NCBI GenBank assembly: GCA_910586385.1
Contig: CAJUGX010000001.1
Location: 144,702-208,701 of the forward strand
Length of the DNA: 64,000 bases
Source of the DNA: an uncultured Christensenella sp.
Lineage (GTDB): Bacteria; Bacillota; Clostridia; Christensenellales; UBA1242
Direction of reading: 5' to 3'
The notes beneath the pieces are model-generated. The model saw only the letters and a list, made by a program, of their open reading frames with translations. It was not told the DNA's origin and did no database searches. Of this stretch, positions 2,081 to 26,676 are shown piece by piece (within the stretch, counting starts at the first letter, position 1; the number at the start of each line of letters is the position of its first letter). The position numbers were made by a program, and so were the translations under genes.

Positions 2081-3267
2081 GTGTGCCAAATGTAAATCTG
2101 TTTCTTGGCTATGTTGATTGTTTGAGAGGAAAAAGCAGCAAAGACAGATATGTAAAGGAAAACTTTGAAGCACGAAGATTTTACAGCGCAGGAAAAGACT
2201 ATGACTATGTGAAATATGTGCAAAACGGAAGTAAAGAAAAAATAGATTTTGTTGACTATTCTGGAAACGAAGAAAAGAGTAAAGGCATTTTTAATGAAAA
2301 TGGACTTTTGAATGAACAACAAATAAAAGAATTGCGCACAAAACTACGAGACACTGACAGCACAATTTGGCATGGTGTTATTTCCTTTACAGAAGAATTT
2401 GGAGACAACTATTGTGACGATTATGAAAAAGCTTATAACCTTATGAAAACGCAGTTGCCAAAGTTTTTTAAATATGCAGGACTAAATCCAGACAATATGA
2501 TCTGGTTTGCAGGCTTGCATGAAAACACTGACAACAAGCATATTCATTTCTCTTTCTTCGAGAAAGCCCCTTTAAGAACGAGACAAGGTCGCAAAGGCAA
2601 ATTCTATTCACAGGGCCTTTTATATAAAACTGCCCTACGTTGCTTTAAAGTCTCAATTGAACTGCATTTGCTGAACATCTACAAAGAAATAGGCCAACAC
2701 AGAAAAGAACTGACAAACTCAATGAAAGAAGGACTAAATATAGGAGCATTTATGAAAAATATAAAATCTCTCATTTTCATTCTTCCAGATAAAGGAAGAT
2801 TAAGCTATGAAAGCGAAAACATTAAGCCATTCAAGCCACAAATTGATTTGATTGTAAATTCAATCATAAACGCAAACAAAGACTTAAAAGAAAAGTTTGA
2901 CAACCTTGAGAAGATCCTAAGCGTTAGAGATAACGAACTCTTGAAAGCATATTCCAAACTGAAAATCAATTATTCAGACAAGCTTTTGCATGATAAGTGC
3001 ATTTATGACATTTATCGCAGACTTGGAAATCTTGTTTTGCTTACGGTGAAAGAAATCCGCATGGAACAACAAAGATTGGACTATGAAACAAGAAATCGCC
3101 TTGTGCGAAAAAGGATTGACAAAATCAAAAGAAAGGCACTTATCAAAAAGTGTATGCAACTAAGCGATCTTGTCAACCGAGAGATTGTTTCTGCCTTTCA
3201 AGAATATTTGGACAAACTTGAAGAAGCAAATTTCAAAATCATGAAAGAAGAAGGACTTTTGGATTGA
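2077..3267 (+). CDS. Conjugative relaxase (MobA/VirD2-type relaxase domain)
   Basis: WHGVISFTEEF and the histidine triad LHENTDNKHIHFSF (HxDx3HxH-like). Position is immediately upstream of the T4CP. Confidence 0.7.
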   Translation: MSVPNVNLFLGYVDCLRGKSSKDRYVKENFEARRFYSAGKDYDYVKYVQNGSKEKIDFVDYSGNEEKSKGIFNENGLLNEQQIKELRTKLRDTDSTIWHGVISFTEEFGDNYCDDYEKAYNLMKTQLPKFFKYAGLNPDNMIWFAGLHENTDNKHIHFSFFEKAPLRTRQGRKGKFYSQGLLYKTALRCFKVSIELHLLNIYKEIGQHRKELTNSMKEGLNIGAFMKNIKSLIFILPDKGRLSYESENIKPFKPQIDLIVNSIINANKDLKEKFDNLEKILSVRDNELLKAYSKLKINYSDKLLHDKCIYDIYRRLGNLVLLTVKEIRMEQQRLDYETRNRLVRKRIDKIKRKALIKKCMQLSDLVNREIVSAFQEYLDKLEEANFKIMKEEGLLD

Positions 3268-10978: not shown

Positions 10979-12382
10979 ATGGATTGGATGACTAACTGGA
11001 TTTTTGAACTTTTTTATAGTTTGCAAAAATCAATTTGTTATGTCATTGATTTCATACGAGAAATTTTCTATATACTTGCGGGCCTTAAACCCGTCACAAT
11101 AGGCGGAAAACAAACTGATTTACTATCCCACTTTATCCTTTCAGATACAGTCAGAACAACTTTCTTTTATATCTTTTTAATTGCAGTCATCTTGCTTGTT
11201 GTGTTTGTCCTTATTGCGATTATACGAAGCGAATATGCCAACGGAGAAAACAAAAAATCAAAAGCATTGATTTTGGGCAAAGCCTTTCAAAGTTTTGCAA
11301 TCTTTCTCATGGTGCCATTTCTTTTGGTTGCAGGAATAACGCTGACAAATGTTGTTATGGGTGCGATCAATCAAAGCATGAATCCATTTGTTTTGGAAAC
11401 TGGTGGCACTGCAACGATTGGCGGACAAATTCTTGTCACAAGCGGACAGCACGCTTATATCGGAGACGAAAGCATAAGAAATGAAATCGAAAGAATGTTC
11501 TTGACTGGTGAACTCAACTACTTTGATATGGGAGTTGTCAGTCAGTATTACAATTTGAGAAACATTGATTTTCTCATTGGAATTTTTGGCTCTATTGTGA
11601 TTATGGTGATGTTTGTTATGAGTGCTGTCACTTTCATACAAAGAATATTTGACATTGTTCTCTTGTATATCATCTCGCCCGTAAGTGTAAGCACAATCCC
11701 CGTTGACGACGGTGCAAGATTTAAAATATGGCGTGACATGACAATATCAAAAGTCTTGGGTGCTTATGGAATTATTCTGTCAATGAATTTGTTTTTCATT
11801 ATCATTCCGCAAATCTCATCAATTGTATTTTTCGACAACGCCTTTAAAAATGGAATTGTCAAAATCTTGTTCCTTATTGGTGGTGCCTTTGCAGTCACAA
11901 AAGCAAATCTTGTTATTGCACAACTCACAGGCAATCAAGCAGGACAAAACGAAACACAACAATTGTTTAGAAATATGCAGACTGGCGGACATATCATGAA
12001 AGCAACTCTTGGCGCAGGTGCTGCTGTTGGTGGTGCTATTCTTGGCGGAAAGAAATTTACAGACACGCGAAAATCGACACGTTCTTCAATGGCAGGACTT
12101 AAACGATCATTCACAGACAACCCAAGCAAACAATATATCAACAAATCTTCCGAGCCAAGCAAACTTGCAAAATATGGTGGAATGGGAACAAGAATTGCGA
12201 CCATGCCTATTGGAATGATGAAAGACTTGGCAAGTGGCGGACTTGTTGGAATGGGCAAAAACTTTATTCCAAGAGTTAGAAATATTGCACAGGGCGACAG
12301 TTTTGTCAACCATGCACAAGGTAAATCAGTTTTAAATAAGGAGCCAAATAATGCGAATAATACCGCGAAACACGAAGGTTAA
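10979..12382 (+). CDS. Polytopic membrane protein, VirB6/TrbL-like
   Basis: At least 6 hydrophobic segments. Position between the pilin-like gene and VirB4. Gly/Ala-rich C-terminal tail. Confidence 0.55.
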   Translation: MDWMTNWIFELFYSLQKSICYVIDFIREIFYILAGLKPVTIGGKQTDLLSHFILSDTVRTTFFYIFLIAVILLVVFVLIAIIRSEYANGENKKSKALILGKAFQSFAIFLMVPFLLVAGITLTNVVMGAINQSMNPFVLETGGTATIGGQILVTSGQHAYIGDESIRNEIERMFLTGELNYFDMGVVSQYYNLRNIDFLIGIFGSIVIMVMFVMSAVTFIQRIFDIVLLYIISPVSVSTIPVDDGARFKIWRDMTISKVLGAYGIILSMNLFFIIIPQISSIVFFDNAFKNGIVKILFLIGGAFAVTKANLVIAQLTGNQAGQNETQQLFRNMQTGGHIMKATLGAGAAVGGAILGGKKFTDTRKSTRSSMAGLKRSFTDNPSKQYINKSSEPSKLAKYGGMGTRIATMPIGMMKDLASGGLVGMGKNFIPRVRNIAQGDSFVNHAQGKSVLNKEPNNANNTAKHEG

Positions 12383-14972
12383 AATGCAGTTTTATAAAGG
12401 CATTGGAATCACTGACATCATACTTGGTGTTATTGCCCTTGCCTTTATAGCTTTGGCTGCTACAAGCAACCTACCAAACAAATATTTTCTTGCAATAGGA
12501 ATTTTGGTGATCGTGGCGCCAATGTATATCCCTATTGGAGACATCAAACTTTATCAAGCACTTGGCTATGCTTTCAAGTTTGGAATTGCACAAAAGACTT
12601 TCAGCATAAAAAGAAAAGGAAATTCTCACATCAGCGCAATTGTGCCTTATGCAAGTATTAAAGATGATTTGATTTATCAAAAGGACAATGGCATTACTGG
12701 TGTTATTGAAGTGAAACCTATCGAGTTTAATATGTTGAGCGAAAGCAAACAAAATTATTTGATTGACGGAGTTATCTCAAACACATTAAAGAATGTTGGA
12801 CTTATGCAAGAATACAACTTAATCAAAATTGAAAAGCCAATCATCTTTGACGGATATTTAAGAAATGAGCTTACTCGCGTTCAAAAATTGATTGCGGAAA
12901 ATGAGAACAACAATCTTAAAGAAGAAGAATTTAGAAAACGCGTTGAAATCATTGAGGATCGAATAAATGTCATTGACAGCATAAACTCTGACGAAAAGAT
13001 TTACGCAAGTGCTTATTATATTGCAATCCACGATATTGACAAGAAAAGCTTAAACAACTCACTTGAAATCATTGAACAAACTTTAAGAAACAGCAATCTT
13101 GAAGCGAAAAGATTAAACAGCAAAGAACTTGCAATCTTTTTGAAATATTCTTATGACAAAGACTTTGACGAAAGGGATTTTGATAATATCGCAGAAAAGG
13201 ACTATATCAAAAACATCTATCCAGAGAATATTGCGTTTAAAGCACTCTCAACAAAACAGAATGATAAAACCCTAACCCACTTTGTTATCACAGACTTCCC
13301 TTTGAAAGTTGACAACGCTTGGGGACAAGATTTGTTTGACATTCCAAACACAAAAGTTGTCTTGAAAGCAAAACCTGTTGAAAAATATAAAGCCACAAAA
13401 CGAATTGACAATGCAATCAATGAACTCTTATCACAAAAGACACTTGGAAAGGCAAGCTCACAGATTGACAAGCAAACACATCTTGAAAGCCTACAAATCC
13501 TTTTGGAAGGCTTGCAAAATGACAATGAAGTGTTCTTTGACACAACTCTTATCATAACCGCCTATGATGACGGAAAAGATACAACAAACAAGAAATTTGT
13601 GCGAAGAAAACTGCGTGAACTTGGCTTCAAATATAGCGAGATGTTTGGCAGACAAATTGAAAGTTATTTTTCAAGCAACATCAACACTTGCAATAGGACC
13701 AACATCTCACGAGGATTGAACTCATCTGTTATTGCTTCATCTTTTCCATTTGTAAGCAACGCTATTCTTGATGAGAATGGCCTTTTGATTGGCGAAAACA
13801 AATTGCCAACCTTTGTTGACTTTTTCAGACGAGATGACGAAAGAGTAAACTCAAACACTGTCATCATTGGAAAATCTGGAAGTGGAAAATCTTACGCTAC
13901 AAAAATGCTATTGGCAAACTTGGCAAGCGACAACGCAAAAGTGTTTATCTTGGATCCAGAAAACGAATATTGCAATCTTGCAAATAATCTCAAAGGCAAA
14001 GTGTTAGATGTTTCATCTTCAAAGAATGGAAGAATAAATCCTTTCCACATCATTGTCAGTCTGGACGACGAAAACCAAGACGGAAGCAGCAACTCTTTCT
14101 ATTCTCACTTGCAATTCTTGGAAGAATTTTTCAGACTTATCTTACAGGGAATAAATCCCGACAGTTTGGAGCTTTTAAACAAAATCATTGTTGAAATCTA
14201 CAACAAAAAAGGAATCACAGCAAAAACAAACTTGTCGGAATTAAGACCAAAAGATTATCCAATCTTTCAAGACTTAGCAGAAGAAATTGACAAAAGGATT
14301 GAAAACGAAAAAGACGAATACAACCTATCTTGCTATAAAGTGCTTTCAAACTATATAAGCAAGTTTAGACGTGGCGGAAGAAACTCTGCGCTTTGGAACG
14401 GATTTACAACTTTCAATCCAACTGAAAACTTTGTTTGTTTCAACTTTCAAAAGTTGTTGGCAAACAAAAACAATGTGATTGGAAATGCACAAATGTTGCT
14501 TGTTTTGAAATGGCTTGACAATGAAGTCATTAAAAATAGGGACTACAACATACTCAACGGAACGGACCGAAAAATTGTTATTGCAATTGATGAGGCCCAT
14601 GTGTTTATTGACGAGAAATTTCCTATTGCGCTTGACTTTATGTATCAACTTGCAAAACGAATAAGAAAATACAACGGAATGCAAATTGTCATCACACAAA
14701 ACGTCAAAGACTTTGTTGGCAGTCCAGAACTTGCAAGAAAATCATCTGCAATTATCAATGTAAGCCAATATTCATTTATCTTTTCACTTTCGCCAAATGA
14801 TATGTCTGACCTTTGCACTCTTTATGAGAAAGCAGGACAAATCAACGAAAATGAAACGGACAATATTGTCAACTTGCCGCGCGGAAGTGCCTTTTTAATT
14901 ACAGGACCAGCAAATAGAACAAATATAAGAATTGTGGCTACACCACAAGTAAAACAAATTTTTGAAAATTAG
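12351..14972 (+). CDS. virB4: VirB4-family T4SS ATPase with VirB3-like N-terminal TM region
   Basis: Walker A VIIGKSGSGKSYATK, Walker B VIAIDEAHVF. N-terminal two-TM segment. SD AAGGAG. Confidence 0.85.
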   Translation: MRIIPRNTKVKMQFYKGIGITDIILGVIALAFIALAATSNLPNKYFLAIGILVIVAPMYIPIGDIKLYQALGYAFKFGIAQKTFSIKRKGNSHISAIVPYASIKDDLIYQKDNGITGVIEVKPIEFNMLSESKQNYLIDGVISNTLKNVGLMQEYNLIKIEKPIIFDGYLRNELTRVQKLIAENENNNLKEEEFRKRVEIIEDRINVIDSINSDEKIYASAYYIAIHDIDKKSLNNSLEIIEQTLRNSNLEAKRLNSKELAIFLKYSYDKDFDERDFDNIAEKDYIKNIYPENIAFKALSTKQNDKTLTHFVITDFPLKVDNAWGQDLFDIPNTKVVLKAKPVEKYKATKRIDNAINELLSQKTLGKASSQIDKQTHLESLQILLEGLQNDNEVFFDTTLIITAYDDGKDTTNKKFVRRKLRELGFKYSEMFGRQIESYFSSNINTCNRTNISRGLNSSVIASSFPFVSNAILDENGLLIGENKLPTFVDFFRRDDERVNSNTVIIGKSGSGKSYATKMLLANLASDNAKVFILDPENEYCNLANNLKGKVLDVSSSKNGRINPFHIIVSLDDENQDGSSNSFYSHLQFLEEFFRLILQGINPDSLELLNKIIVEIYNKKGITAKTNLSELRPKDYPIFQDLAEEIDKRIENEKDEYNLSCYKVLSNYISKFRRGGRNSALWNGFTTFNPTENFVCFNFQKLLANKNNVIGNAQMLLVLKWLDNEVIKNRDYNILNGTDRKIVIAIDEAHVFIDEKFPIALDFMYQLAKRIRKYNGMQIVITQNVKDFVGSPELARKSSAIINVSQYSFIFSLSPNDMSDLCTLYEKAGQINENETDNIVNLPRGSAFLITGPANRTNIRIVATPQVKQIFEN

Positions 14973-14982
14973 GAGTTAAAAA

Positions 14983-15915
14983 ATGGAAGATAAAAAATTC
15001 ATGACGCTTGAAGATTTGACCGCACTCTCACAAGAGAAATATATGGAAATCTTGAAGCAAAACCAAATCAAATCACTTTTGAGAGCAATTGGATTGTTTC
15101 CAGATCAAACAATCACAAATGATGTTCTTATCCTTTCACAAAATCCAGACGCTATTTGCGTGAAACGTATGAAAGAATGGAATTTCTATAAAAGAGTTGT
15201 AAAGAAAGCTGAAAAAGCAATCAAAGTTGTTTCTCATCACATTGAAAACTTTAATCAAGACTTCGTTGACGAAAAAGGCAACGAATATTCACAAGAAATG
15301 CCAAAACTGATTTGTGATGTTGGCTTTGTGTTTGACATCTCTCAAACAGAAGGCAAAGATTTTGAATATCTCAATTCAAACAAAGAAACAATCGCGTCTC
15401 ATTTTGAAACCGTTAAAAAGGCTTTGGAAAGCACTGCAAAAGAGTTTACTTTTGAATATAGAAATCAAGACAGCAACAGCGAAGTTGATTGGGAAAATAA
15501 AGTTGTCTATGTAAAAGACGGACTTTCTGTCAATGAACTCATTGAAGATGTTGCTGCTATTCTTTTGACTACCCGCCATGAAGAAGGACTTGAAAATATT
15601 GGCGAGTTTGAAAGAAATGCTGTTATCTATGCTGTCAGCTCAAAACTTGGACTTGACTTGCCAGAATATGATTTCTCAGTTGAAAGTCTCAATGACGAAG
15701 GCTTGAACAAACTTAAAGGCAATCTTCAAAAAGTGCGTTCTGTCACAAAGCAAATGCTTTCAAATGTTGAAAATTCAATTGAACGCGCAATCCGCAATCT
15801 TGACAAAAAAATGCAAGAGCAAGAAGAAAAGTTGGAACAAACAACAGAACAAGAAACACCTAAAAAGTCGAAAGCAAAAACAAAATCAAAAGACATTGAA
15901 AGAGAGGTGCAATAA
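14983..15915 (+). CDS. ArdC-like (ssDNA-binding, anti-restriction) protein; tentative
   Basis: Weak remembered resemblance to the ArdC N-domain (KRMKEWNFYKRVVKKAEKAIKVV ... FVFDISQTEG). Lys/Glu-rich tail. Confidence 0.35.
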   Translation: MEDKKFMTLEDLTALSQEKYMEILKQNQIKSLLRAIGLFPDQTITNDVLILSQNPDAICVKRMKEWNFYKRVVKKAEKAIKVVSHHIENFNQDFVDEKGNEYSQEMPKLICDVGFVFDISQTEGKDFEYLNSNKETIASHFETVKKALESTAKEFTFEYRNQDSNSEVDWENKVVYVKDGLSVNELIEDVAAILLTTRHEEGLENIGEFERNAVIYAVSSKLGLDLPEYDFSVESLNDEGLNKLKGNLQKVRSVTKQMLSNVENSIERAIRNLDKKMQEQEEKLEQTTEQETPKKSKAKTKSKDIEREVQ

Positions 15916-16181
15916 TGCTGAACATTGGTGGAGAACTTGCATTTGTGTTGCAAGACATTGACTACAATTCAAAGAAAGATCTTTTGGACAGGCTTCGCCA
16001 TATCCGAGAGGATCTTCGTGATTATCCAAAAGAAGAAAAGGACAACCTACGCCCTATCTTAGCTGTTTCTATTCAGCAAGCTTTCTATGCAAGTGAATGG
16101 GAACTCATGCGATACAAGAATTTCTGCAAATACAGGAGTGAACATGGATACGATAAAGCTGTTGGTGAAAGAGCCAAATAA
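15915..16181 (+). CDS. Hypothetical protein
   Basis: ATG preceded by GAGGTGCAATA. 88 aa. Confidence 0.5.
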   Translation: MLNIGGELAFVLQDIDYNSKKDLLDRLRHIREDLRDYPKEEKDNLRPILAVSIQQAFYASEWELMRYKNFCKYRSEHGYDKAVGERAK

Positions 16182-16566
16182 AGAGCCCTATATTAAGGAA
16201 GTTGAACACACACTTGAAAATATGCAAGCCATTGTTGGTGGATATATCGAATGTGTTGAAATGCCCGGAGCTGAAAACATTGACATTTATCTCAACGAAG
16301 AAGGCAAACTTGAACGATTGCCCGGCAATATATGGATTGCGGGAATTGATGATTGCATTGTTGGCACTTGTTATATGGTTGGCTATGATCCTAAAACCGG
16401 TGCAAATATCAGCTTGACAGAGAAACAAATTAAAACTTGTGAAAAGTATTGCAATACCTTTTCTTTGCCAGAAGATAGTGATTTATATATGGATTATTTT
16501 TGGCTTAAAGAAATTATGAAACTTAGAAGCGAGAATTATCTTAAAAAATCAATATCTGAAATGTAA
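16144..16566 (+). CDS. DUF3846-like protein
   Basis: ORF track 16087..16566. The ATG at 16144 lies 5 nt after AGGAG. Pattern LQ..VGGYIE.V......D.Y.NEEGKL..LP.N is typical of DUF3846 as remembered. Confidence 0.5.
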   Translation: MDTIKLLVKEPNKEPYIKEVEHTLENMQAIVGGYIECVEMPGAENIDIYLNEEGKLERLPGNIWIAGIDDCIVGTCYMVGYDPKTGANISLTEKQIKTCEKYCNTFSLPEDSDLYMDYFWLKEIMKLRSENYLKKSISEM

Positions 16567-16580
16567 ATAAGGAGACGCCT

Positions 16581-16832
16581 ATGACATTTGAAGAAAAACT
16601 AACAGTCACAGCTTTTACAAAGATTCTTATGGTGGACATGAACGATTTTCATGAATATGCTGAAAAACTTTTGGAAAGACCGATCATGACACATGAATTT
16701 GCGCTTGAAAGTGTGTGGAAAGAAATACAAGACAAAGTTAGACCAGACTTTGTTGCACTTTGCGAGAAACACCCCCATACAAAAACACGCAAAAATGTAA
16801 AATGCAAGAGAAATTATCATGGCGAGATGTAA
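16581..16832 (+). CDS. Hypothetical protein
   Basis: SD AAGGAG. 83 aa. Ends in EM. Confidence 0.55.
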   Translation: MTFEEKLTVTAFTKILMVDMNDFHEYAEKLLERPIMTHEFALESVWKEIQDKVRPDFVALCEKHPHTKTRKNVKCKRNYHGEM

Positions 16833-16841
16833 AGGAGCCCT

Positions 16842-17978
16842 ATGGAAGAAAATAAAATAAGCAAAGCAAAAGGCCTTTCAATTACAATGATTATTCTTGC
16901 AATTGTGGTGGGCTTTGGATTTCTCATTGGACTGGCACAAGCTGCCGACAGAGACAAACTTTTTCAAGAAACAAATCCAGAAATGGAATTTTACTTCTTT
17001 GATGAAAATGGCAGATTCCTAACCTATTGGGATAACTATGAAAATTACAATGTTGAGGTTAATATCCCAAAAACATATTCTTTGACATCAAAAAAAGTTG
17101 CAATGCACAGAGAAGCAACATCACAGAGCGACCTAACATCTTACGCTAAAAAACTTGGCATAGAAGATTACACGATAACTGACATTTCTGGCTATGTGCA
17201 AAATGGAAATTCTCAATATTATCGAACAAGATACAGAATTGATTTTGAATGGCGAAAAACAATCACAGGAACTCAATACACCACAACAATCATTGGGCGA
17301 GATTTGTTTAGGAACACTTCGCGCTATCGTTCTTTTAATATCCCAAATACAGTTAAGACAGTTGAATGGTCCGCATTTTGTGGAACACATGGGCACACAG
17401 AAATAGTTTTTCCAGAAGGCGTTGAAAGTCTTGAAGGCGGAGTTTGCTTTGGCAATTCAAACCTAAAAACAATCTCTCTGCCAAGCACTTTAAAATATAT
17501 CGGAAGTCAAGCTTTTGAACAATGTCACAAAGTTGTCGAGCTTGTTTTGCCGGACAGCGTTGAAACAATCTCTTGGAGTAGTTTTAATAGAATGACAAAA
17601 CTTGAAACTCTAACCCTTTCAGCAAATTTGCAAACAATTGCCAGCTATTCAATTTCATGGTGTTATAAACTTAAAACAGTAAATTTCAAAGAAGGAAACC
17701 GCACTATTGGTGAGAAAGCATTTGAAGATTGCACTGCTTTGGAAGAAGTCAATTTGCCAAGCACTTTGACAACAATTAAATCAAAAGCATTTGACGGTTG
17801 CACGAGCCTAAATAAAGTGATTTTAAATGCTGCTTCTGTTGTAAAGATTGATAATGACGCTTTCCCAGAAAATGTTGAAAAGTTTTATGTGAAAGACGAG
17901 ATTTATGAAGAATATTTGAACAGCGCTTATTGGACTGGATTGACAGACAAAATAGCAAAAATTTCTGAAATGAATTGA
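16842..17978 (+). CDS. Membrane-anchored BspA-type leucine-rich-repeat protein
   Basis: N-terminal TM. Repeated IP.TV..I...AF..C..L..V.LP units. Confidence 0.7.
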   Translation: MEENKISKAKGLSITMIILAIVVGFGFLIGLAQAADRDKLFQETNPEMEFYFFDENGRFLTYWDNYENYNVEVNIPKTYSLTSKKVAMHREATSQSDLTSYAKKLGIEDYTITDISGYVQNGNSQYYRTRYRIDFEWRKTITGTQYTTTIIGRDLFRNTSRYRSFNIPNTVKTVEWSAFCGTHGHTEIVFPEGVESLEGGVCFGNSNLKTISLPSTLKYIGSQAFEQCHKVVELVLPDSVETISWSSFNRMTKLETLTLSANLQTIASYSISWCYKLKTVNFKEGNRTIGEKAFEDCTALEEVNLPSTLTTIKSKAFDGCTSLNKVILNAASVVKIDNDAFPENVEKFYVKDEIYEEYLNSAYWTGLTDKIAKISEMN

Positions 17979-17987
17979 GGTGCAATA

Positions 17988-18299
17988 ATGACAGAAAAAC
18001 AATACGATAAATTTAGAAACACTATTGATAAAGAGATCGAAGAATATAAACGCGAAGTTTGCAACAATGCCCCTATCCATGTTTATGAAAGATTTTATGA
18101 AATTCATGCTTACGAAGAAATTTATGATTTTCTTTGTCATGACGCTATAAATCATGACATTAAGGGCTTCCCTGCAAAAAATATTTTAGATCACTTTTAT
18201 TGTCAATTTATGAAAACAGACTATGACTTAACGCAAGAAGATTTATATGATTTTTTGGAAGAAGAAACAAAGCTCTATAAATCTCAAAGCGAATTGTGA
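17988..18299 (+). CDS. Hypothetical protein (paralog of 18665..18994)
   Basis: SD GAGGTG. Shares the EI(E/D)(E/D)(Y/F)(K/E)RE...FP.(K/E)N(I/V)L...DL.D(F/M) pattern with 18665..18994. Confidence 0.55.
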   Translation: MTEKQYDKFRNTIDKEIEEYKREVCNNAPIHVYERFYEIHAYEEIYDFLCHDAINHDIKGFPAKNILDHFYCQFMKTDYDLTQEDLYDFLEEETKLYKSQSEL

Positions 18300-18306
18300 G
18301 GAACTT

Positions 18307-18663
18307 ATGAAACAAAAATATTTGATTAGAGGTGAACTCTATGATCCAATCCTATTTGGTGATGAAGATTCCGATTGGGTTGGAGACGGTGAAGATCCAA
18401 CTTGTGGCGACTGCGGTTGTCATGTTGGTGAACAACATTTGGACGGTTGTGATATTGAACGCTGCCCAAGATGTGGCGGACAAATGCTGTCTTGTGATTG
18501 CGGAACAAAATATATCATCAACGAAGAAGATATGAAAGATTTGCCACAAATCATTGAAGAACAAAAGATTGTCAACGAAGGACTTGAAAGAGAAATACAA
18601 GCAATCATTGAAGCTCATGAAAAGAAAAAACAAGAACAGAAAGATGATAATTCGGAGATGTGA
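18307..18663 (+). CDS. Cys-rich putative zinc-binding protein
   Basis: ORF track 18247..18663. ATG at 18307 follows GAGGAA. CGDCGCH...C..ERCPRCGG...CDC. Confidence 0.55.
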   Translation: MKQKYLIRGELYDPILFGDEDSDWVGDGEDPTCGDCGCHVGEQHLDGCDIERCPRCGGQMLSCDCGTKYIINEEDMKDLPQIIEEQKIVNEGLEREIQAIIEAHEKKKQEQKDDNSEM

Positions 18664-18664
18664 A

Positions 18665-18994
18665 ATGACTGAAAAAGAAGATTTTAAATTGACGTCTTTG
18701 ATTTTAAGAGAAATTGACGATTTTGAGAGAGAAATGCTTGGTAAAGACAGCGAATATCTTTTTGAAAATGCAAGAGAAATTTATGCAACAAAATTTATCG
18801 GTGATTGTCTGGTTGATTATAACTTTCTAAAAGATAAGGACTATAACCTTTTCCCAAAAGAAAATGTATTGCGTTCTATCACAGAATTATATTTGAGATT
18901 TCATGACGAGATTTCAGAAAGTGATTTGTCAGATATGTTTACAGAATACGAAACTCAATTGAAGAAGATTGCAAATTGTGGAAGTGAGATGTAA
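18665..18994 (+). CDS. Hypothetical protein (paralog of 17988..18299)
   Basis: ORF track 18554..18994. The ATG at 18665 lies directly after the upstream stop (GGAGATGTGAAATG). Confidence 0.55.
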   Translation: MTEKEDFKLTSLILREIDDFEREMLGKDSEYLFENAREIYATKFIGDCLVDYNFLKDKDYNLFPKENVLRSITELYLRFHDEISESDLSDMFTEYETQLKKIANCGSEM

Positions 18995-18996
18995 AC

Positions 18997-19956
18997 ATGG
19001 AACAATATGAAATTGATTATATTAAGTCCAACTTGCAATCCTATCTTGAAACAAAAGGAATTAGAACAGACAAATTTTTCACTTGCATAAATCCAGAACA
19101 TTCAGATCAACACCCGTCTATGAAATACTTTGATGACTACAAAATTCACTGTTTTGGTTGTGGCGCAACCTATGATTTGTTTGGTGCAATTGCAGCAATA
19201 GAACATTTGGATCGTAAAGAAGCATTTAAAAAAGCAATTGATTATTATGAGAGAAGGACACTGACACCAGATACAATTATTAAGCAAAAAACAGTAAAAA
19301 ATGAACAAAAACCTGCAAAAAACTATGAAAAAGCATATAAATACTGGCAAAATGCTTTAAAAGACAATTTTGAAGCACAAGAATATTTGCTTTCTCGTGG
19401 TATTGATTTGGCGACTGCAAACCGTTTTGGATTAGGCTTTAATAGCTTTTATTTTGAGAAAACAAATACAAGACTTAATGCGATCACAATCCCCCTTTCA
19501 AAAAATTGTTTTTCTGCAAGAAATATAAATCCAAATGAAGAAATGAGATATTACAAAACAAAAGACAGTGATGTTGATATTTTCAATAAGCAAGCGATGA
19601 CAAACAAGCAACCTATTTGTGCAATAACCGAAGGCGAATTTGATTGTTTAAGTTTTGAAACTTTAAATGTTAATTGTGTTGGGCTTGGAAGTGCCAACAA
19701 TGTAAATCTTTTCATTGAAAGTGAGAAAGACAAAAATAAAACTTTTATTATCGCGCTTGACAATGATGAAGCAGGACAAAAATGGGCACAGAAATTGAAA
19801 GAGTATTTCAAAGAAAACAAAATCAAATTTGCAGAGTTTGACAATTGCGGATACAAAGATCCAAACGAAGCGTTAGTCAAAGATAAAAGTGCTTTTTCAA
19901 AAAGCATTTTTTCTTTAATCAAAAAACTTGAAAAACAAAACAATGCTGAAATGTGA
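18997..19956 (+). CDS. DnaG-like primase (CHC2 zinc finger plus Toprim)
   Basis: CINPEHSDQHPSM...HCFGCGATYD zinc finger. Toprim residues ITEGEFDCLSF and ALDNDEAGQK. Confidence 0.8.
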   Translation: MEQYEIDYIKSNLQSYLETKGIRTDKFFTCINPEHSDQHPSMKYFDDYKIHCFGCGATYDLFGAIAAIEHLDRKEAFKKAIDYYERRTLTPDTIIKQKTVKNEQKPAKNYEKAYKYWQNALKDNFEAQEYLLSRGIDLATANRFGLGFNSFYFEKTNTRLNAITIPLSKNCFSARNINPNEEMRYYKTKDSDVDIFNKQAMTNKQPICAITEGEFDCLSFETLNVNCVGLGSANNVNLFIESEKDKNKTFIIALDNDEAGQKWAQKLKEYFKENKIKFAEFDNCGYKDPNEALVKDKSAFSKSIFSLIKKLEKQNNAEM

Positions 19957-19967
19957 GGAGAAATAAA

Positions 19968-20369
19968 ATGAGCAACTTAGACGAATATATTGACTATAAC
20001 TTTTATTCTTCAACAACGAGAACTCCCGAATATATCTCGTTTGAGAGAAAGTATAGAAACTATATCAAAAAACATTTGCCAGAGAACTATTCAATACACA
20101 AGTTTAATAACAACCACTTTGAATTTAGTTGTGTGATAAAGACAAACAATGAAAAATTCCTTTATATGTCAATCCCTGATGTTAGATATTTTCCTAACGA
20201 GTGGAGAAATAACATTTTGATAAGAACTATGGCACACGATCATGATTGGACTGCTGGTAGCAACAACCGCACTGATTTAGATCATTTCACAGAAGATATA
20301 AAAGAACTAAATGAAAGAGGATATGTTAGTTTTCACTCACGAAAACAAACACATGACTACGAAATGTAA
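19968..20369 (+). CDS. Hypothetical protein
   Basis: ORF track 19953..20369. ATG at 19968 lies 7 nt after GAGGAG. Confidence 0.55.
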   Translation: MSNLDEYIDYNFYSSTTRTPEYISFERKYRNYIKKHLPENYSIHKFNNNHFEFSCVIKTNNEKFLYMSIPDVRYFPNEWRNNILIRTMAHDHDWTAGSNNRTDLDHFTEDIKELNERGYVSFHSRKQTHDYEM

Positions 20370-20384
20370 AAAAGGAAGAAAACT

Positions 20385-21491
20385 ATGCAACAATCAATTT
20401 TTGATTTGTTGGGTAGCGAAGGCGAAAGATTTAAGGCAAAAGAAAGCACTGATTGGAATTGGAGTTTCAAAGATTATCCACAAAGCAACGGACTGAAAGT
20501 ATTTAGTTGTTTTGCTTGTGGTGGTGGCAGCACAATGGGATATAAACTTGCAGGCTTTGATGTTGTTGGCTGTTTGGAAATTGATAAACGCATGAATGAC
20601 CTTTATGTGAAAAATCATAATCCTAAGCATAACTTTGTCATGGATATACGAGATTTTAATAATATCCCAAACAATGAATTGCCACAAGAACTCTTTGAAC
20701 TTGACATCTTGGACGGAAGTCCACCATGCACAACATTCTCTATGGCAGGAAAACGAGAAAAAACTTGGGGAAAGAAAAAGAAATTTCGTGAAGGACAAAA
20801 AGAACAGACTCTTGACGATTTGGCTTTTGTCTTTATTGAAACAGTAAACAAACTTCGCCCCAAGTTTGTTGTCATGGAAAATGTTGAAGGGCTTATGAAC
20901 GGAAATGCTTGGAAGTATGTGCAAAACATATACAAGCACTTTCACGATATTGGCTACAAAGTAAAACACTGGCTTTTAAAAGGCGAACACATGGGGATCC
21001 CCCAGAAGCGCCACAGAGTGTTTTTTGTAGCCACCAGACTTGATTTGGACCTTGATAAGCTCAACATGACATTCAACTATAAACCAATCCCTTTCGGGCA
21101 AATAAAGGCCGATTATGGCTCAAATATGCCTTTATATGACACTTTGCAGAAACTTGTAGTCCATGCAAAATATGGTGATCGAAATTTACAGAACGCTTGC
21201 TTAAAAACACGAGGCAAGAGCTCTTTTTTTAATTACTGTTTTGTGTATGATGAACAAGTCTCCCCAACAATAACCGCCCACTGCAATAATATTCGGTGGG
21301 ATACAAAAACCTTTTTGTCAAAACAAGACATTGTTTCAATCTCAACCTTTCCACAAGACTATAATTTTTTAAGCAAAAGTTTAGACCATGTTTCCTATGT
21401 GTGCGGAATGAGTGTTCCGCCCGTCATGATTAAAAGAGTTGCTGAAAGAATTTATCAACTTTTGAGAGGTGAAAATGAGCGAACTATCTGA
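20385..21491 (+). CDS. dcm: DNA (cytosine-5) methyltransferase, orphan
   Basis: Motif I FSCFACGGGSTMGY, motif IV GSPPCTTFS, motif VI ENV, QKRHRVFF, GMSVPP. No adjacent endonuclease-like gene. Confidence 0.85.
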   Translation: MQQSIFDLLGSEGERFKAKESTDWNWSFKDYPQSNGLKVFSCFACGGGSTMGYKLAGFDVVGCLEIDKRMNDLYVKNHNPKHNFVMDIRDFNNIPNNELPQELFELDILDGSPPCTTFSMAGKREKTWGKKKKFREGQKEQTLDDLAFVFIETVNKLRPKFVVMENVEGLMNGNAWKYVQNIYKHFHDIGYKVKHWLLKGEHMGIPQKRHRVFFVATRLDLDLDKLNMTFNYKPIPFGQIKADYGSNMPLYDTLQKLVVHAKYGDRNLQNACLKTRGKSSFFNYCFVYDEQVSPTITAHCNNIRWDTKTFLSKQDIVSISTFPQDYNFLSKSLDHVSYVCGMSVPPVMIKRVAERIYQLLRGENERTI

Positions 21492-21870
21492 CAAAAGAAA
21501 CTTAATACGAAAACTAAAAGAAATAAAAGAAAATCTCTCTTACGATTATCAAAAAAACTATTCAGACATCTGGGACACTTGTGCCGACTTTGAAAACGAA
21601 TATGGTGGCATTTATTTGTGCGACCATATCCACGATTTTGGCTTACTTGATGAAGATGATACGCAATATTGGCTTGAACAAAATAACAACGATCTTGACA
21701 GACTGCGTTATTTCATTGGCGACACTTATTCGTCTGATATGTATAGGCTAAACGCCTATGGCAATTTAGAAAATATTGGCATTGAAGATTTTAAAGATTT
21801 GTGCGATGAACTGATTGATGTTGTAAGAGATGACTTAAAGAGTTTGAAATTAGCAGAAAATGTGAGGTAA
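21475..21870 (+). CDS. Acidic hypothetical protein
   Basis: ORF track 21469 (GTG). The ATG at 21475 lies 5 nt after GAGAGG. Confidence 0.55.
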   Translation: MSELSDKRNLIRKLKEIKENLSYDYQKNYSDIWDTCADFENEYGGIYLCDHIHDFGLLDEDDTQYWLEQNNNDLDRLRYFIGDTYSSDMYRLNAYGNLENIGIEDFKDLCDELIDVVRDDLKSLKLAENVR

Positions 21871-21872
21871 AT

Positions 21873-22550
21873 ATGGAAAATGAATTTGTAGAACAATATG
21901 ACGAAAATCAAATTAGACAATTTTTTAAGGCTTGCGAAGGCCACAAATATGAGTGCTTTTATAAAATGATATTTGCTTACAGACTTTCAAGATTGGAACT
22001 TATGAACATGAAATGGAGTGATATTGATTTTGTTAAAAATACAATCACTATACATCATATTTCACGAAATGGTGTAGATGATTATCATGCTTATTACACT
22101 CATTTGAAAAGAGATGAAGAATTTGCACGCACTTATCCCCTTTTGCCACACATTAAAGATTTGCTGATAAATGAGCAACAAAAACAACTCCAAAACTCTA
22201 TAAGCTGCACTGACTACGATTTCAGCAATAGAGATTATCTTTGTGTAAGAGAAAATGGCAAAATGATGAACGCCAGAACACTGAGCAGAAACATCAAATA
22301 TATCACAAGAGATCACAATCTTCCAGAGTGTTTAATTACAGGAATTAAAGACAGCGCAAGTGAATATCTTTTTGTTCGTGCTGAAAATGCCAACCTTTTC
22401 AGATGTTGGACAAGATTTGATTTCAATATTAGACGTATGAACATTTATGGAGATTATAATCTTCGCAGAAATCAAAAATGGCAAAAACTATTAAATAGCA
22501 TGATTGATCAATCCTCATCAAGACAGAGAACAGAACAAAGTGAAATGTGA
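21873..22550 (+). CDS. Degenerate tyrosine-recombinase-like protein (catalytic C-terminal motifs not recognisable)
   Basis: FAYRLSRLELMNMKWSDIDFVKNTITI matches the Arg-I box region of integrases. No HxLRH box or terminal LGH...Y motif could be found. Confidence 0.5.
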   Translation: MENEFVEQYDENQIRQFFKACEGHKYECFYKMIFAYRLSRLELMNMKWSDIDFVKNTITIHHISRNGVDDYHAYYTHLKRDEEFARTYPLLPHIKDLLINEQQKQLQNSISCTDYDFSNRDYLCVRENGKMMNARTLSRNIKYITRDHNLPECLITGIKDSASEYLFVRAENANLFRCWTRFDFNIRRMNIYGDYNLRRNQKWQKLLNSMIDQSSSRQRTEQSEM

Positions 22551-22558: not shown

Positions 22559-22771
22559 ATGAACAGACTTTTGGAACTTTCAGCAGTCATGTTTAAGGAA
22601 TATCCAGACTGCGTGAATATGAAACAATTACAAGAAATGCTTGGAATAAAACGAACGAAAACTTATGAATTACTACAAAATGGCGAAATTAAAGCAAAAA
22701 AGATAGGCAAAGACTACAAGATACCTAAGTATAATGTGCTTGCCTATCTTTTTAATGAGGAACAATTATGA
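22559..22771 (+). CDS. xis: Excisionase/HTH DNA-binding protein
   Basis: ORF track 22547 (GTG). ATG at 22559 follows GAGG. MKQLQEMLGIKRTKTYELLQNGEIKAKKIGKDYKIPK. ATGA overlap with int. Confidence 0.65.
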   Translation: MNRLLELSAVMFKEYPDCVNMKQLQEMLGIKRTKTYELLQNGEIKAKKIGKDYKIPKYNVLAYLFNEEQL

Positions 22772-24045
22772 CAGGTAAAACGGAAGTTATCAATGGAATC
22801 TACTATTTGACAATTTACTACAAAGACTCTCTCAACCGCCACAGAAGAACAAGAATTAAAACTGACTTGCCAGAACGCGGAAATAAGAAAGCTGCTGAAA
22901 AACTCTTGAAAGAAAAACTGGAAAACTTTGATATTGCAGAATACGAAAGTGTTTCAGATGAAAGAATAGTTAATAAAAATATAATCTTTATTGATTATAT
23001 TGAACAATATGTTTTAGATAAGAAGAAAGAGTTAAGTCCAGCAGCATATTATTCTTACGAAAACCGCGTGAAAACCATAAAAGAATATTTTGGAAATAAA
23101 TTGTTGTTGAAAGATGTGACCTATCATCATATTGAAGATTTCTATGATTATCTTAGAAATGAACGCGGAAACACTAACACAACAATAAAACATTATGCTG
23201 TCATTTTATCGCCAGCATTACGAAAAGCATATAGAGATGACTTGATCCCCAAAAATCCCTACGAATTTATGCCAAAACTTAAAAGAGAAAAACACAAAAC
23301 AGAGTTTTATAACAAAGAAGAGTTAGAAACTCTTTTTTCTTTTACTGATAAAACCCGATTGGGACTTATTGTCCGAGTGGCTGCTTTTTATGGATTTAGG
23401 CGAAGTGAATTGTTGGGATTAAAATGGAAGTCTATTGATTTCAAAAAGAAAATCATAACTGTTGAAAACAAAATCATAAGAATAAACGGACAACTTTATC
23501 AGTCTGAAAAACTTAAAACAGACGCAAGTTTAAGATCTTTGCCATTATTGCCCAAAATTGAAGAATTGCTTTTAAAACGCAAAGAAGAAATTGAATGCAA
23601 TAAAAAGCTCTATGGCAAATCTTATATCCACAACTTTGATGAATATGTTTTTGTTGACGATTACGGAGACATTATCTTCCCCGATTGGGTATCAAATAAT
23701 TTCAGATTGTTGTTAAAGAGAAACAATCTTAAACACATTCGCTTTCACGACTTGCGACATAGCTGCGCCAGCCTTTTGCTTGCAAATAATGTGCCGATGA
23801 AGAATATCCAAGAATGGCTTGGACACGCCAATTACAGCACAACTGCCGATGTCTATTCTCACTTGGACTTTTCATCTAAAATCAGATCTGGGGATATTAT
23901 TGGAACACAACTTTCAGAATATGATTATAAAGACGCTTTAAGCAAGAAAGATTTGGAACTTGAAATAAAGAGATTAAACCGCTTGCTTGAAGAAAAACAA
24001 GCACTTTTAAACAAGAAAAAAATTGCCGACAGCGGAATGGGATAA
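22768..24045 (+). CDS. int: Tyrosine site-specific integrase
   Basis: FYGFRRSELLGLKWKSIDF, HDLRHSCASLLL, LGHANYSTTADVYSHL. Confidence 0.9.
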   Translation: MTGKTEVINGIYYLTIYYKDSLNRHRRTRIKTDLPERGNKKAAEKLLKEKLENFDIAEYESVSDERIVNKNIIFIDYIEQYVLDKKKELSPAAYYSYENRVKTIKEYFGNKLLLKDVTYHHIEDFYDYLRNERGNTNTTIKHYAVILSPALRKAYRDDLIPKNPYEFMPKLKREKHKTEFYNKEELETLFSFTDKTRLGLIVRVAAFYGFRRSELLGLKWKSIDFKKKIITVENKIIRINGQLYQSEKLKTDASLRSLPLLPKIEELLLKRKEEIECNKKLYGKSYIHNFDEYVFVDDYGDIIFPDWVSNNFRLLLKRNNLKHIRFHDLRHSCASLLLANNVPMKNIQEWLGHANYSTTADVYSHLDFSSKIRSGDIIGTQLSEYDYKDALSKKDLELEIKRLNRLLEEKQALLNKKKIADSGMG

Positions 24046-24136: not shown

Positions 24137-24169
24137 AAATTCGTCACAAATTCGTCACAAATTCGTCAC
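24137..24169. repeat. Perfect tandem repeat AAATTCGTCAC x3; candidate integrase arm-type sites
   Basis: Three contiguous identical 11-bp units between int and the tRNA. Confidence 0.8.
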
Positions 24170-24226
24170 AAAGCCCACTTTTGCTTGCTTTTTTCAGAAA
24201 AAATCGTTAAATTTGGCTATCAAAAA

Positions 24227-24343: not shown

Positions 24344-24418
24344 TGGTGCTCCCGTCAGGATTTGAACCCGAGACCTTCGTTCCGAAGACGAATGTGATAT
24401 CCATTTCACTACGGGAGC
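24344..24418 (-). tRNA. tRNA-Arg (anticodon UCG)
   Basis: Hand-folded 75-nt cloverleaf: acceptor GCTCCCG/CGGGAGC, D arm GTGA-AATGGATA-TCAC, anticodon stem TTCGT/ACGAA with loop CTTCGGA, T arm TCGGG-TTCAAAT-CCTGA, encoded CCA. Confidence 0.85.
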
Positions 24419-24448
24419 ATATTAAATTTTCGGAATTTTTGAAAAGGG

Positions 24449-24511
24449 AGCTCTCAAACCCCCGCACAGTCTCTCCGAAGACCATTGTGCTATCCATTAC
24501 ACCACGAGAGC
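24449..24511 (-). pseudogene. Truncated tRNA-like sequence (paralog of the adjacent tRNA-Arg 5' half; no T arm)
   Basis: The 5' 38 nt, including loop CTTCGGA, match tRNA-Arg at 32/38 positions. The anticodon stem cannot pair canonically. Only ~63 nt lie between the acceptor halves GCTCTCG/TGAGAGC. No CCA. Confidence 0.5.
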
Positions 24512-24672
24512 ATTTTGACTTGCTTTCATTTTAACATTGCCAAGCCTTAAAGTCAAATTGAAAGGACATGTTGTCCAAATCTCTTCCCTATTATATATAT
24601 TTGAAGAAAAAGTGTCGTTTGCTTGATTTTTTTGCGTTTTAATACTAAAATAAAGTTGATTAGGAGTTTTAT

Positions 24673-26676
24673 ATGAAGAAAAAACTTAAACCATTTCTTA
24701 TTGCACTCGTTATTTTGGTCATCATTGGCTATGCTGGCGGATCAGCTCTTGCATACTTCCTTGATGGACAATATAATGAAATAACTGAAGCGATTAGATC
24801 TGATTGGTCGTTTATTGGTGCGGCTCTTGGCGTTGTTCTTGCTATCGTGTATGCTGTTATGTCAAAACCTAAAAAGAAAGAAGCAGTAAAAGACAAGGGA
24901 AAAACTGCTGCCGGCGACGAAATGAAATTGTCTTATGACTCTAAGTGGCTCGAACCAAAAAATTTTGACAAAGAATTTGGGCTTATCCTGACAAACTGGG
25001 CAAACCTCCCTTCTGTCAAAAACACGGGTATCGTTTTCAGAAACACAATTGAGAATGGAAAATACCAAATCGCAATGAAAGACGAATATCACTGCCTGAT
25101 TATAGGAACAACCGCATCTGGTAAAACTTCTTTTTGTATCATTCCAACAATCAGAATTTTGGCACACTCTGGTGAAAAGCCACATATGGTTGTCGCAGAC
25201 CCAAAAGGAGAACTTTGGGAAAAGACGAGTAAGATTATGGAAGATGAGGGGTATCGTGTATTAACCCTTGATTTGAGAGATCCATTTTCTTCAACCAGAT
25301 GGAATCCAATGGAACATGCATTTGATGTTTATCACAAGGGTAAAAACTGCAAAAACACAGTGAAAAAATGTTCAAACGGAACAAAACCAAAGGATGCCGG
25401 ATTTAAGGAACTTCCTGGAGTCAAATATGGTGCAGAATGGTTTGGGTTTGAAGGAGTTGCTTATCCAGACGAAGAACAACTTAGAGTGGCAGTTTCAAGC
25501 GCAGAACAAGTTTATGTTGACTTGGCGCAAAACGAACTTAAAGAAGTGTGCAACACTGTTGCTCCAAAGTCTAAAAACTCAAGCGACCCAACTTGGGAAG
25601 AAGGTGCTCAGGATTATCTCTATGGATGCGCCCTTGCAATGCTTGAGGATAGTTTGAATCCAGAACTTGGCATGACAAGAGAAAGATTCAACTTCTACAA
25701 CCTTTATAAGATTGCAACATTCCGTGATCCAGATGCTGACGCACCATTTGAAACAGTAAGAAAATATCTTCTTCAAGGTCGTGACGACGCAACATCCAAT
25801 GTTCCAAATTTGACATCTGCAGTTATCAACAATGCCCCAAACACCACAAAATCATACATTGGTGTATTGAATGGTAAGATTTCATTTATGAACGATATTG
25901 GTATCTCATACTTGACCTCACAAAGTGACATAGATTTTGAAGATTTCACAAGCAAACCAACAATTCTTTATCTCGTCATCCCAGACGATAGAGAAGAACG
26001 ACACAACCTTGCAATCTTGTGTATTTCTCAACTTTATAAACGTTTGGTTGACAAAGCAAATTCATATCCTGGACAAAAGTTGCCACAACACGTATACTTC
26101 ATCTTGGATGAATTTGGTAATATTCCTCCAATTCCAAAATTTGACAGTATGATCACCGTATCTCGTGGAAGAAACATTCTTTATGAAATGGTTGTCCAAT
26201 CTTATACTCAGATTGAAACAAAATATGGTCAAGAAGCAGCAAAAACAATCATCGGAAACTGCAATGCTCAAATATTTATTGGATGTGATGACCAACCAAC
26301 TCTTGAGGCATTTTCAAAGAAGTGCGGTGATGTTCAGTTGACTCACGAAGAGACAAACACCTCTGTTTCCAAGAGTGACAAAGACAAAGACGGAAAGCAG
26401 ACCAGCACAAGCACCCAGCTTCAAAGAACAACCCGTCCACTTATCACACCTTACGAACTTGGTCAGATTCCATTTGGAACTGTCGTTGTAAAACTTTTCA
26501 GATACAACCCAATCCAGATGAAACTTACTCGAAACGACCAAGTACCAATGTTCTATGTAAAACTTGCTCGTAAGGAAATTGGACAGACTAAGAGTCTTGA
26601 CACTGCAGCAGTTTATTATGATATCAAGATGAGAAACAAAAAGATTTTGAAGCAAACAAGTCCATTCAATTTCTAA
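24673..26676 (+). CDS. virD4: Second type IV coupling protein (VirD4/TraG family), orphan
   Basis: Walker A LIIGTTASGKTS, Walker B VYFILDEFGNIP. Collinear motif similarity with 3264..5453 (DPKGEL, LDLR.P, RWNP, VVQSY.Q, FSKKCG). Confidence 0.85.
   Translation: MKKKLKPFLIALVILVIIGYAGGSALAYFLDGQYNEITEAIRSDWSFIGAALGVVLAIVYAVMSKPKKKEAVKDKGKTAAGDEMKLSYDSKWLEPKNFDKEFGLILTNWANLPSVKNTGIVFRNTIENGKYQIAMKDEYHCLIIGTTASGKTSFCIIPTIRILAHSGEKPHMVVADPKGELWEKTSKIMEDEGYRVLTLDLRDPFSSTRWNPMEHAFDVYHKGKNCKNTVKKCSNGTKPKDAGFKELPGVKYGAEWFGFEGVAYPDEEQLRVAVSSAEQVYVDLAQNELKEVCNTVAPKSKNSSDPTWEEGAQDYLYGCALAMLEDSLNPELGMTRERFNFYNLYKIATFRDPDADAPFETVRKYLLQGRDDATSNVPNLTSAVINNAPNTTKSYIGVLNGKISFMNDIGISYLTSQSDIDFEDFTSKPTILYLVIPDDREERHNLAILCISQLYKRLVDKANSYPGQKLPQHVYFILDEFGNIPPIPKFDSMITVSRGRNILYEMVVQSYTQIETKYGQEAAKTIIGNCNAQIFIGCDDQPTLEAFSKKCGDVQLTHEETNTSVSKSDKDKDGKQTSTSTQLQRTTRPLITPYELGQIPFGTVVVKLFRYNPIQMKLTRNDQVPMFYVKLARKEIGQTKSLDTAAVYYDIKMRNKKILKQTSPFNF

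Follow-up and report, generated by a model that had tools for sequence, protein, structure and literature searches.

Seven genes on the plus strand of an integrative and conjugative element (ICE) from an uncultured Christensenella sp. end in codons for glutamate and methionine directly before the stop codon. They lie at 16144-22550 of the window, a 64,000-nucleotide stretch of contig CAJUGX010000001.1, and three more genes are one mutation away from the same ending. Comparison with related elements places selection on the codons or the protein and not on a DNA or RNA word, and the Glu-Met (E-M) end is probably a protein-level tag. Its use as a recruitment or transfer signal of the element's type IV secretion system (T4SS) is proposed tentatively. 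Full-text literature searches returned no description of such a tail and, as far as can be told, it has not been described before.

The Glu-Met ends in the window

The first-pass annotation, made from the sequence alone, had reported seven C-termini ending in E-M together with two near-variants, ISEMN and QSEL, and every one of them is found in the genes listed here. Two further degenerate copies, in the gene at 21475-21870 and in the integrase gene at 22768-24045, extend that list, which also includes two untailed genes of the same block; lengths are in amino acids (aa).

16144-16566, plus strand: DUF3846 protein, 140 aa, ending KKSISEM; tail GAAATGTAA at 16558-16566
16581-16832, plus strand: DUF7736 protein, 83 aa, ending YHGEM; tail GAGATGTAA at 16824-16832
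16842-17978, plus strand: membrane-anchored BspA-type leucine-rich repeat protein, 378 aa, one transmembrane segment, ending ISEMN; GAAATGAATTGA at 17967-17978
17988-18299, plus strand: DUF3848-like protein, 103 aa, ending QSEL, with Leu for Met; GAATTGTGA at 18291-18299
18307-18663, plus strand: acidic Cys-rich (Zn-ribbon-like) protein, 118 aa, ending DNSEM
18665-18994, plus strand: DUF3848-like protein, 109 aa, ending CGSEM; tail GAGATGTAA at 18986-18994
18997-19956, plus strand: Zn-finger/Toprim primase, 319 aa, ending NNAEM; tail GAAATGTGA at 19948-19956
19968-20369, plus strand: protein with no assigned function, 133 aa, ending HDYEM; tail GAAATGTAA at 20361-20369
20385-21491, plus strand: C-5 cytosine methyltransferase, no E-M tail; a negative control inside the block and the operon
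21475-21870, plus strand: acidic protein, 131 aa, ending AENVR; GAAAATGTGAGGTAA at 21856-21870, tail lost by a +1 A insertion
21873-22550, plus strand: degenerate tyrosine-recombinase-like protein, 225 aa, ending EQSEM; tail GAAATGTGA at 22542-22550
22559-22771, plus strand: excisionase-like HTH_17 protein, no E-M tail
22768-24045, plus strand: tyrosine integrase, ending ADSGMG, a degenerate tail; GGAATGGGATAA at 24034-24045

The degenerate copies can be traced to single changes. The gene of the acidic 131-aa protein ends GAA-AAT-GTG-AGG-TAA (GAAAATGTGAGGTAA), while the junction in its orthologs reads GAAATGTGAGG, so that one extra A shifts the frame; orthologs of this protein end in SEM, EEM or SEL, and the frameshifted form is one event common to four close relatives. 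The integrase gene ends GGA ATG GGA TAA (SGMG), one nucleotide from EMG, and integrases of related elements close with DFEM, DMEM, SEMC or NEMN. The BspA-type family mostly lacks the tail, with no E-M end and three E-M ends followed by one extra residue (EMx) among 28 members.

None of the E-M-tailed proteins in the window has a transmembrane segment, and several small ones are strongly acidic (pI 4.3-4.7). In an AlphaFold2 model of the primase, a terminal helix at residues 297-316 is followed by a coil formed by AEM; in the model of the DUF3846 protein the tail stands at the end of the terminal helix, and the predicted local distance difference test score (pLDDT) falls in the last block. By these two models, and at their lower confidence there, the last residues would be exposed just past the terminal helix. 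The DUF3846 model as a whole (16144-16566; pLDDT 95.8) consists of a beta-rich core followed by two helices, and since a Foldseek comparison with the PDB gave no significant match, the fold appears structurally uncharacterised.

That chance would be a very unlikely cause of the recurrence had been argued from the sequence, and it is borne out by where the motif stands. Counted simply as a DNA word, GARATGTRA shows no clear excess in the window: it matches 9 times, against 4.55 expected from shuffles, and 9 matches were reached in 4 of 100 shuffles. Within a run of 13 consecutive genes, seven end in frame on one of these nine matches. With the internal frequency of the E-M dipeptide (0.165%) taken as the chance rate, about 0.02 such endings are expected, and the probability of at least 7 E-M endings in 13 genes is about 6e-17. 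The word count alone is not significant; the non-random signal lies in the in-frame placement.

Spread across the element family

A primase-profile scan with one genome per species gave 80 loci. Those with a primase identity of at least 49% (L001-L033) come from gut metagenome-assembled genomes labelled Clostridia, Christensenella or Christensenellales, and Lachnospiraceae, and the 47 loci with more distant primases served as the control. Gene order is alike across L001-L033. An E-M end was found in 100 of 530 dereplicated genes from the window and L001-L033, compared with 2 of 720 genes in the control loci. Clustering by BLAST divides the tailed proteins into 16 unrelated families, which upholds the earlier description of the proteins as unrelated, with the correction that the two DUF3848-like proteins of the window are paralogs. 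Ten families are given here; the others are smaller.

Zn-ribbon-like protein: E-M in 17 of 17 members
173-aa protein: E-M in 14 of 15
DUF3846 protein: E-M in 11 of 13
Degenerate recombinase: E-M in 4 of 4
Primase: 11 E-M and 12 EMx of 25
DUF3848 protein: 10 E-M and 5 EMx of 18
131-aa acidic protein: 8 E-M, 7 E-L and 4 frameshifted
Integrase: 8 E-M and 2 EMx of 16
1923-aa SNF2/ResIII helicase: E-M in 2 of 2
DUF1281_C protein: E-M in 3 of 7

Other families never carry an E-M tail, among them VirB4 (0 of 12), the pilin (0 of 9), membrane proteins, the C5 methylase (0 of 23) and the excisionase (0 of 7), and none of 120 coupling protein homologs ends in E-M. Among about 96 primase orthologs, down to 42% identity, 61 end in E-M, 25 in EMx and 4 in E-L, and the 10 residues ahead of the tail are highly variable.

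The distribution has an edge. Elements L034-L037, with a more distant primase, are of a different kind and have no E-M tails. In L081, a more distant ICE that bears a DUF3846 protein, the E-M end occurs on that protein only, so the spread over many families seems specific to the lineage of the window. A separate clade of 127-aa DUF3846 proteins (P0447-P0495; L081 10001-10384), whose ICE carries a sortase, a SpaA adhesin and an SSB (a protein that binds single-stranded DNA), ends in D-[MFY]-E-[M/L/I], so that DUF3846 may have had an E-hydrophobic end before the other families did. PLSDB plasmids gave distant matches only, with primases of at most 33% identity and a coupling protein of about 27% ('VirD4-like, CD1115 family'); no close relative, cultured or annotated, was found among them. 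Full-text literature searches returned essentially nothing on DUF3846, DUF3848 or DUF7736.

A different ending was seen on the conserved 310-aa protein encoded after VirB4 (window 14983-15915, family 8), which closes with E-V-[E/Q/A] in 11 of 15 relatives. This resembles an E-hydrophobic-x pattern and may be a diverged form of the tail.

Selection on codons or residues and not on a nucleotide word

A comparison of orthologs, which the first-pass annotation had proposed as a way to tell a conserved peptide from conserved nucleotides, favours the peptide: E-M is kept, and the synonymous positions (GAA or GAG; TAA, TGA or TAG) vary freely. All six synonymous E-M-stop 9-mers are used within the Zn-ribbon family, GAA, GAG and all three stop codons occur inside single families, and the stops after E-M (TAA 57, TGA 24, TAG 19) equal the background. 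The hexamer GARATG occurs 100 times in the canonical position; in 24 further cases it is shifted upstream by one codon and in two by two codons (both E-M-x-M). Out-of-frame GARATG near the stop amounts to about one match per position, none beyond background. Where Met is replaced by Leu, the codons CTA, CTT, TTA and TTG are all used, and Ile is also seen.

The constraint reaches further upstream than the S-E-M consensus first put forward, which proved too narrow. With families weighted, position -4 is D, E, N or Q in 83% of tails compared with 30% in other genes; position -3 is small (S, A, G or T) in 43% compared with 20%, may otherwise be Glu, and is never basic; and positions -7 and -8 are K or R in about 50% compared with 9-15%, and almost never hydrophobic. 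The tail region is 58% A. Lysine and arginine codons are used as in the background (AAG 28% against 23%, CGN 27% against 28%), which indicates that the A-richness follows from the choice of amino acids and not from RNA composition. An A-rich leader acting at the RNA level was accordingly rejected as a candidate.

The tail is also independent of a downstream gene, as about eight operon-terminal integrases keep it with no gene nearby, most of them followed by a terminator-like hairpin.

A probable recognition tag, perhaps for transfer

The window holds a complete conjugation module (MobL, VirD4, VirB4 and pilin) in one operon, the same operon as the tailed genes. Its plus strand from about 600 to 24045 is a single long conjugation operon of the ICE, whose components ahead of the tailed genes are as follows.

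Plus strand: sigma-70 region-4 regulator
2077-3267, plus strand: MobL relaxase
3264-5453, plus strand: VirD4-type coupling protein, 729 aa, with the domains T4SS-DNA_transf, TraG-D_C and TrwB_AAD_bind
Between the coupling protein and VirB4, plus strand: a 1481-aa surface protein, the T4SS pilin and a polytopic membrane protein
12351-14972, plus strand: VirB4

The accessory block on the 3' side of VirB4 contains small genes, the primase, the C5 methyltransferase, the degenerate recombinase, the excisionase and the tyrosine integrase.

We propose that the tail is a C-terminal short linear motif, approximately [KR][KR]-x-x-[DENQ]-[small]-E-M-COOH, that tolerates at most one extra residue and would have been gained independently by a defined subset of soluble ICE proteins and held by purifying selection. 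As an exposed tag it would be read by one common receptor, of which the likeliest would be the coupling protein. Proteins for 'establishment' would in this way be brought to the conjugation channel and enter the recipient along with the single-stranded DNA; the clients of the tag would be the primase, the integrase without the excisionase, the recombinase-like factor, the SNF2 helicase and the small acidic, possibly anti-defence, proteins. Ordinary operon packing overlies the tag: where the next start lies 1-3 nucleotides (nt) past the stop, GAG preceded by G furnishes GGAG as a Shine-Dalgarno (SD) sequence.

That a reader exists, that it is the coupling protein and that the outcome is protein transfer are three things we infer. 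The restriction of the tail to one ICE lineage points to a single reader co-evolving with the element. The coupling protein is, to our knowledge, the substrate receptor of all T4SSs, and it is a natural candidate because of that role, because it is present here and because it is far more conserved than the clients: its relatives are 74-93% identical, and, judged by contigs of matching length, coupling proteins of 74-81% identity appear to share elements with primases only about 53% identical. It carries a helical C-terminal extension of about 120 aa, which is not basic. The composition of the client list, with primase, integrase, SNF2 helicase and small acidic proteins in it and excisionase, methylase and T4SS parts outside it, would fit transfer better. 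An integrase that arrives without its excisionase would drive integration rather than excision, and anti-defence activity is often found among proteins as small and acidic as these.

Primases are known to be transferred in the ColIb-P9 (Sog) and RP4 (TraC) systems. Conjugative T4SSs of the F type translocate many element-encoded and host proteins, and their translocation signals are C-terminal or internal and rich in positive or hydrophobic residues (PMC8406263, PMC11288057). The tail resembles the C-terminal signals of VirB/D4 (Arg-rich), of the F, RP4 and pKM101 'conjutome' and of Sog and TraC in being a short signal at the extreme C-terminus of unrelated proteins of a T4SS element, in having a basic patch a few residues upstream, in having a primase and likely establishment proteins as clients, and in the presence of a VirD4-type coupling protein. 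Such signals occupy the last 20-50 residues or so, and E-M forms the last two residues in 100 cases and positions -3/-2 in 24, with nothing above background deeper in the protein. The charge pattern is mixed, with K or R in about half of tails at -7/-8 and a hydrophobic last residue, but with acidic residues at -2 and -4. The known signals are also loose patterns of charge and hydrophobicity, whereas the tail is an invariant dipeptide with an acidic tip (D-x-E-M). We know of no consensus signal for Gram-positive conjugation, and none was found in the literature searched. It is possible, if somewhat doubtful, that with the E-M tail a Gram-positive conjugative T4SS has for the first time a substrate-recruitment signal defined by its sequence.

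In the Legionella Dot/Icm system the E-block, read by DotM, is likewise a Glu-containing C-terminal signal with a hydrophobic residue near the end, and the coupling complex recognises it on many unrelated clients. The E-block, however, lies at about -10 to -17 with the hydrophobic residue at -3 or -4, while the E-M tail is acidic at -2/-4 and basic from -7 to -12, and Dot/Icm is a type IVB system with DotL/M/N and IcmSW adaptors, domains that were not found in the ICE. With Glu in a different position and with neither DotM nor IcmSW domains detected, the tail was not assigned to the E-block class.

Several observations weigh against a transfer signal. Scans with Pfam, PHROGs and NCBIfam detected no TPR, PDZ or adaptor domain in any ICE protein. 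One extra residue follows E-M in about 20% of tails (EMC, EME, EMS, EMM, EMN), which a receptor dependent on the free carboxylate of Met would not easily accommodate, and the tip is acidic, while the classical VirB/D4 signals are Arg-rich. The relaxase and the left-end genes were covered in the window only, the rest of the tail survey being family-wide. Met has a single codon, so selection on translation at the codon is not fully separable from selection on the protein. Finally, a degron or docking on another hub would leave the same sequence statistics. Of the C-terminal tag first suggested, the protein-level part is supported by the ortholog, frame and operon-terminal comparisons, and the evidence does not decide its choice between transfer and a protease.

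Alternative explanations

An unlikely alternative is that the tail is a C-terminal degron, sending transfer-phase proteins to a host AAA+ protease of the ClpXP, ClpCP or Lon type, which would give the primase, the integrase and the accessory factors short lifetimes and let the element reset fast after induction. All evidence for a protein-level tag applies equally here, and all tailed proteins are soluble and cytosolic. The tail shares with C-degrons (ssrA with its LAA end, MuA, SpoIIAB with LCN) a short tag at the extreme C-terminus with a non-polar end, transferable in principle, and encoded and ssrA-type degrons likewise have a hydrophobic last residue. The sequences are unrelated, however (A-L-A-A in ssrA, D-x-E-M here), and no known bacterial degron has an E-M sequence. 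The excisionase, which would be most expected to be unstable, is never tailed. The extra residue tolerated in about 20% of tails is unlike ssrA-type recognition, though this is a weak argument. The confinement of the tail to one mobile-element lineage and its absence from neighbouring host genes favour an element-encoded reader over a universal protease.

Docking without transfer is also unlikely; here the tail would bind another hub, and the partner would assemble DNA-processing proteins on the element DNA, as the clamp-binding peptides and SSB-tip interactions of replication proteins do. Candidate hubs are the relaxosome, an SSB or clamp-like host factor, or a chaperone of the element. The clients whose function is known work for the most part on DNA (primase, integrase, recombinase-like protein, SNF2 helicase), but the small acidic DUF proteins have no known DNA role. 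The tail resembles hub-binding tips in its acidic tip and hydrophobic end, as in the D-D-D-I-P-F end of SSB, which it recalls, or in being a shared docking peptide, as in the clamp-binding pentapeptide at the C-terminus of Pol IV and the EEVD of Hsp70/90 with its TPR clamp. No hub was identified among the element proteins scanned, the ICE yielded neither a TPR nor an OB-fold partner, and the sequenced part of the element holds no SSB gene. SSB-like D-x-LPF tips on unrelated small proteins of other Christensenella elements provide a precedent for a C-terminal tip common to several proteins of a mobile element. These D-x-L-P-F ends were observed on unrelated 244-, 92- and 71-aa proteins (L034 16231-16965 and 17816-18094; L036 20372-20587) of Christensenella elements whose primase is distant.

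It is quite improbable that the tail acts in translation, with Glu-Met occupying the ribosome's E and P sites at the stop codon, or an in-frame AUG beside the stop, tuning termination, recycling or reinitiation. Such a role would suit a motif that holds its frame and its position with respect to the stop, that has the next start within 25 nt in 82% of genes, and in which the single Met codon cannot be separated from the residue. Part of the tail does answer to the downstream gene. Its Glu codon is GAG in 42% of cases (42 of 100), compared with 16% genome-wide, and in this GAG class the next ATG lies 1-3 nt past the stop and xxG-GAG supplies a GGAG SD; in the GAA class the SD follows or overlaps the stop. 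The Zn-ribbon-like gene, ending tcG GAG ATG TGA a ATG, illustrates the first arrangement, its in-tail GGAG being the SD of the next gene, and the DUF7736 gene the second, its stop overlapping the next SD (TAAAGGAG). The short-spacer class, xxG-GAG-ATG-stop-N(1-3)-ATG, is like the SDs embedded in the 3' ends of upstream genes in compact operons. Complementarity to the anti-SD is confined to the xxG-GAG class, and the overlay accounts for the R in GAR; the Met codon, the GAA class, tails that no gene follows and the tail as a whole fall outside it. The earlier remark that the tail is more than an SD for the following gene is therefore correct, with the qualification that the overlay governs the choice between GAG and GAA.

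A role for AUG in translation is disfavoured by the variable distance to the next start (-4 to +18 nt and beyond, with no downstream start after some tails), by the operon-terminal integrases that keep the tail before terminators, by the methylase, Xis, VirB4 and pilin genes, which are equally tightly coupled and never tailed, and by the Leu and Ile replacements. In EMx variants, moreover, E-M no longer occupies the sites of the terminating ribosome, and the 8-residue profile is left unexplained. The termination-reinitiation context suggested by the first-pass annotation is countered by the synonymous freedom, the in-frame motif and the operon-terminal tails. Two specific candidates of this kind were rejected: a translational-coupling element, given that spacing is not fixed and the tail does not depend on a downstream gene, and a minimal AUG-stop ('start-stop') open reading frame (ORF), given that the AUG is read in frame as a sense codon within a long ORF and that GGAG, where present, abuts it without the spacing that independent initiation would plausibly need.

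A very improbable reading, that GARATGTRA is a recombination, processing, priming or binding site at cassette boundaries, can appeal to the recurrence of a nine-base word at gene boundaries and to the frameshifted copy at 21856-21870, which keeps the nucleotides and not the peptide, but it and the cassette junction proposed earlier are largely refuted by the strict frame and the synonymous freedom of the motif, by its lack of significant over-representation in the window or out of frame, by a gene order that is conserved and not shuffled across the family, and by the fact that the frameshifted copy is a single event. Integron-type attC junctions with a GTTRRRY core were considered and rejected, as the genes are 1-20 nt apart, too close for attC-like repeats to fit between them, and gene order is conserved across L001-L033.

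Right end of the element and neighbouring features

The integrase gene adjoins a tRNA-Arg(tcg) at 24344-24418 on the minus strand. No attachment (att) direct repeats of the tRNA-Arg side were found within the window, and the left end of the element probably lies outside it. Three tandem 11-nt copies (AAATTCGTCAC) stand at 24140-24175, 3' of the integrase gene and between it and the tRNA gene, and could serve the integrase as arm-type binding sites in the attR region. Beside the tRNA-Arg, at about 24440-24520 on the minus strand, is a second tRNA-like sequence, not among the ARAGORN calls, for which a degraded tRNA or the remnant of an att site are possible origins.

A second VirD4-like coupling protein (667 aa, 24673-26676) begins about 250 nt past the tRNA, which suggests that another conjugative element or a remnant of one abuts the ICE; none of the genes near it is E-M-ended. 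Farther along, a single ORF of 4739 aa occupies 40345-54564 on the minus strand.

Significance of the tail

How conjugative systems choose their protein substrates is poorly understood, especially in Gram-positive bacteria. A two-residue tag, lineage-wide on 16 unrelated families, would make this choice directly testable. Should the tail serve transfer, its presence or absence would allow the 'conjutome' to be read from sequence, comprising the primase, the integrase and not the excisionase, the recombinase-like factor, the SNF2 helicase and about eight small acidic proteins, and the delivery of an integrase without its excisionase would provide a logic for directional integration. DUF3846, DUF3848 and DUF7736 would then be flagged as probable early-acting establishment or anti-defence factors, and the tail would offer a minimal tag for delivering appended proteins into recipient gut Clostridia. 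If it is instead a degron or a docking signal, it would still represent an unusually clean convergent gain of a short linear motif in the proteins of a mobile element.

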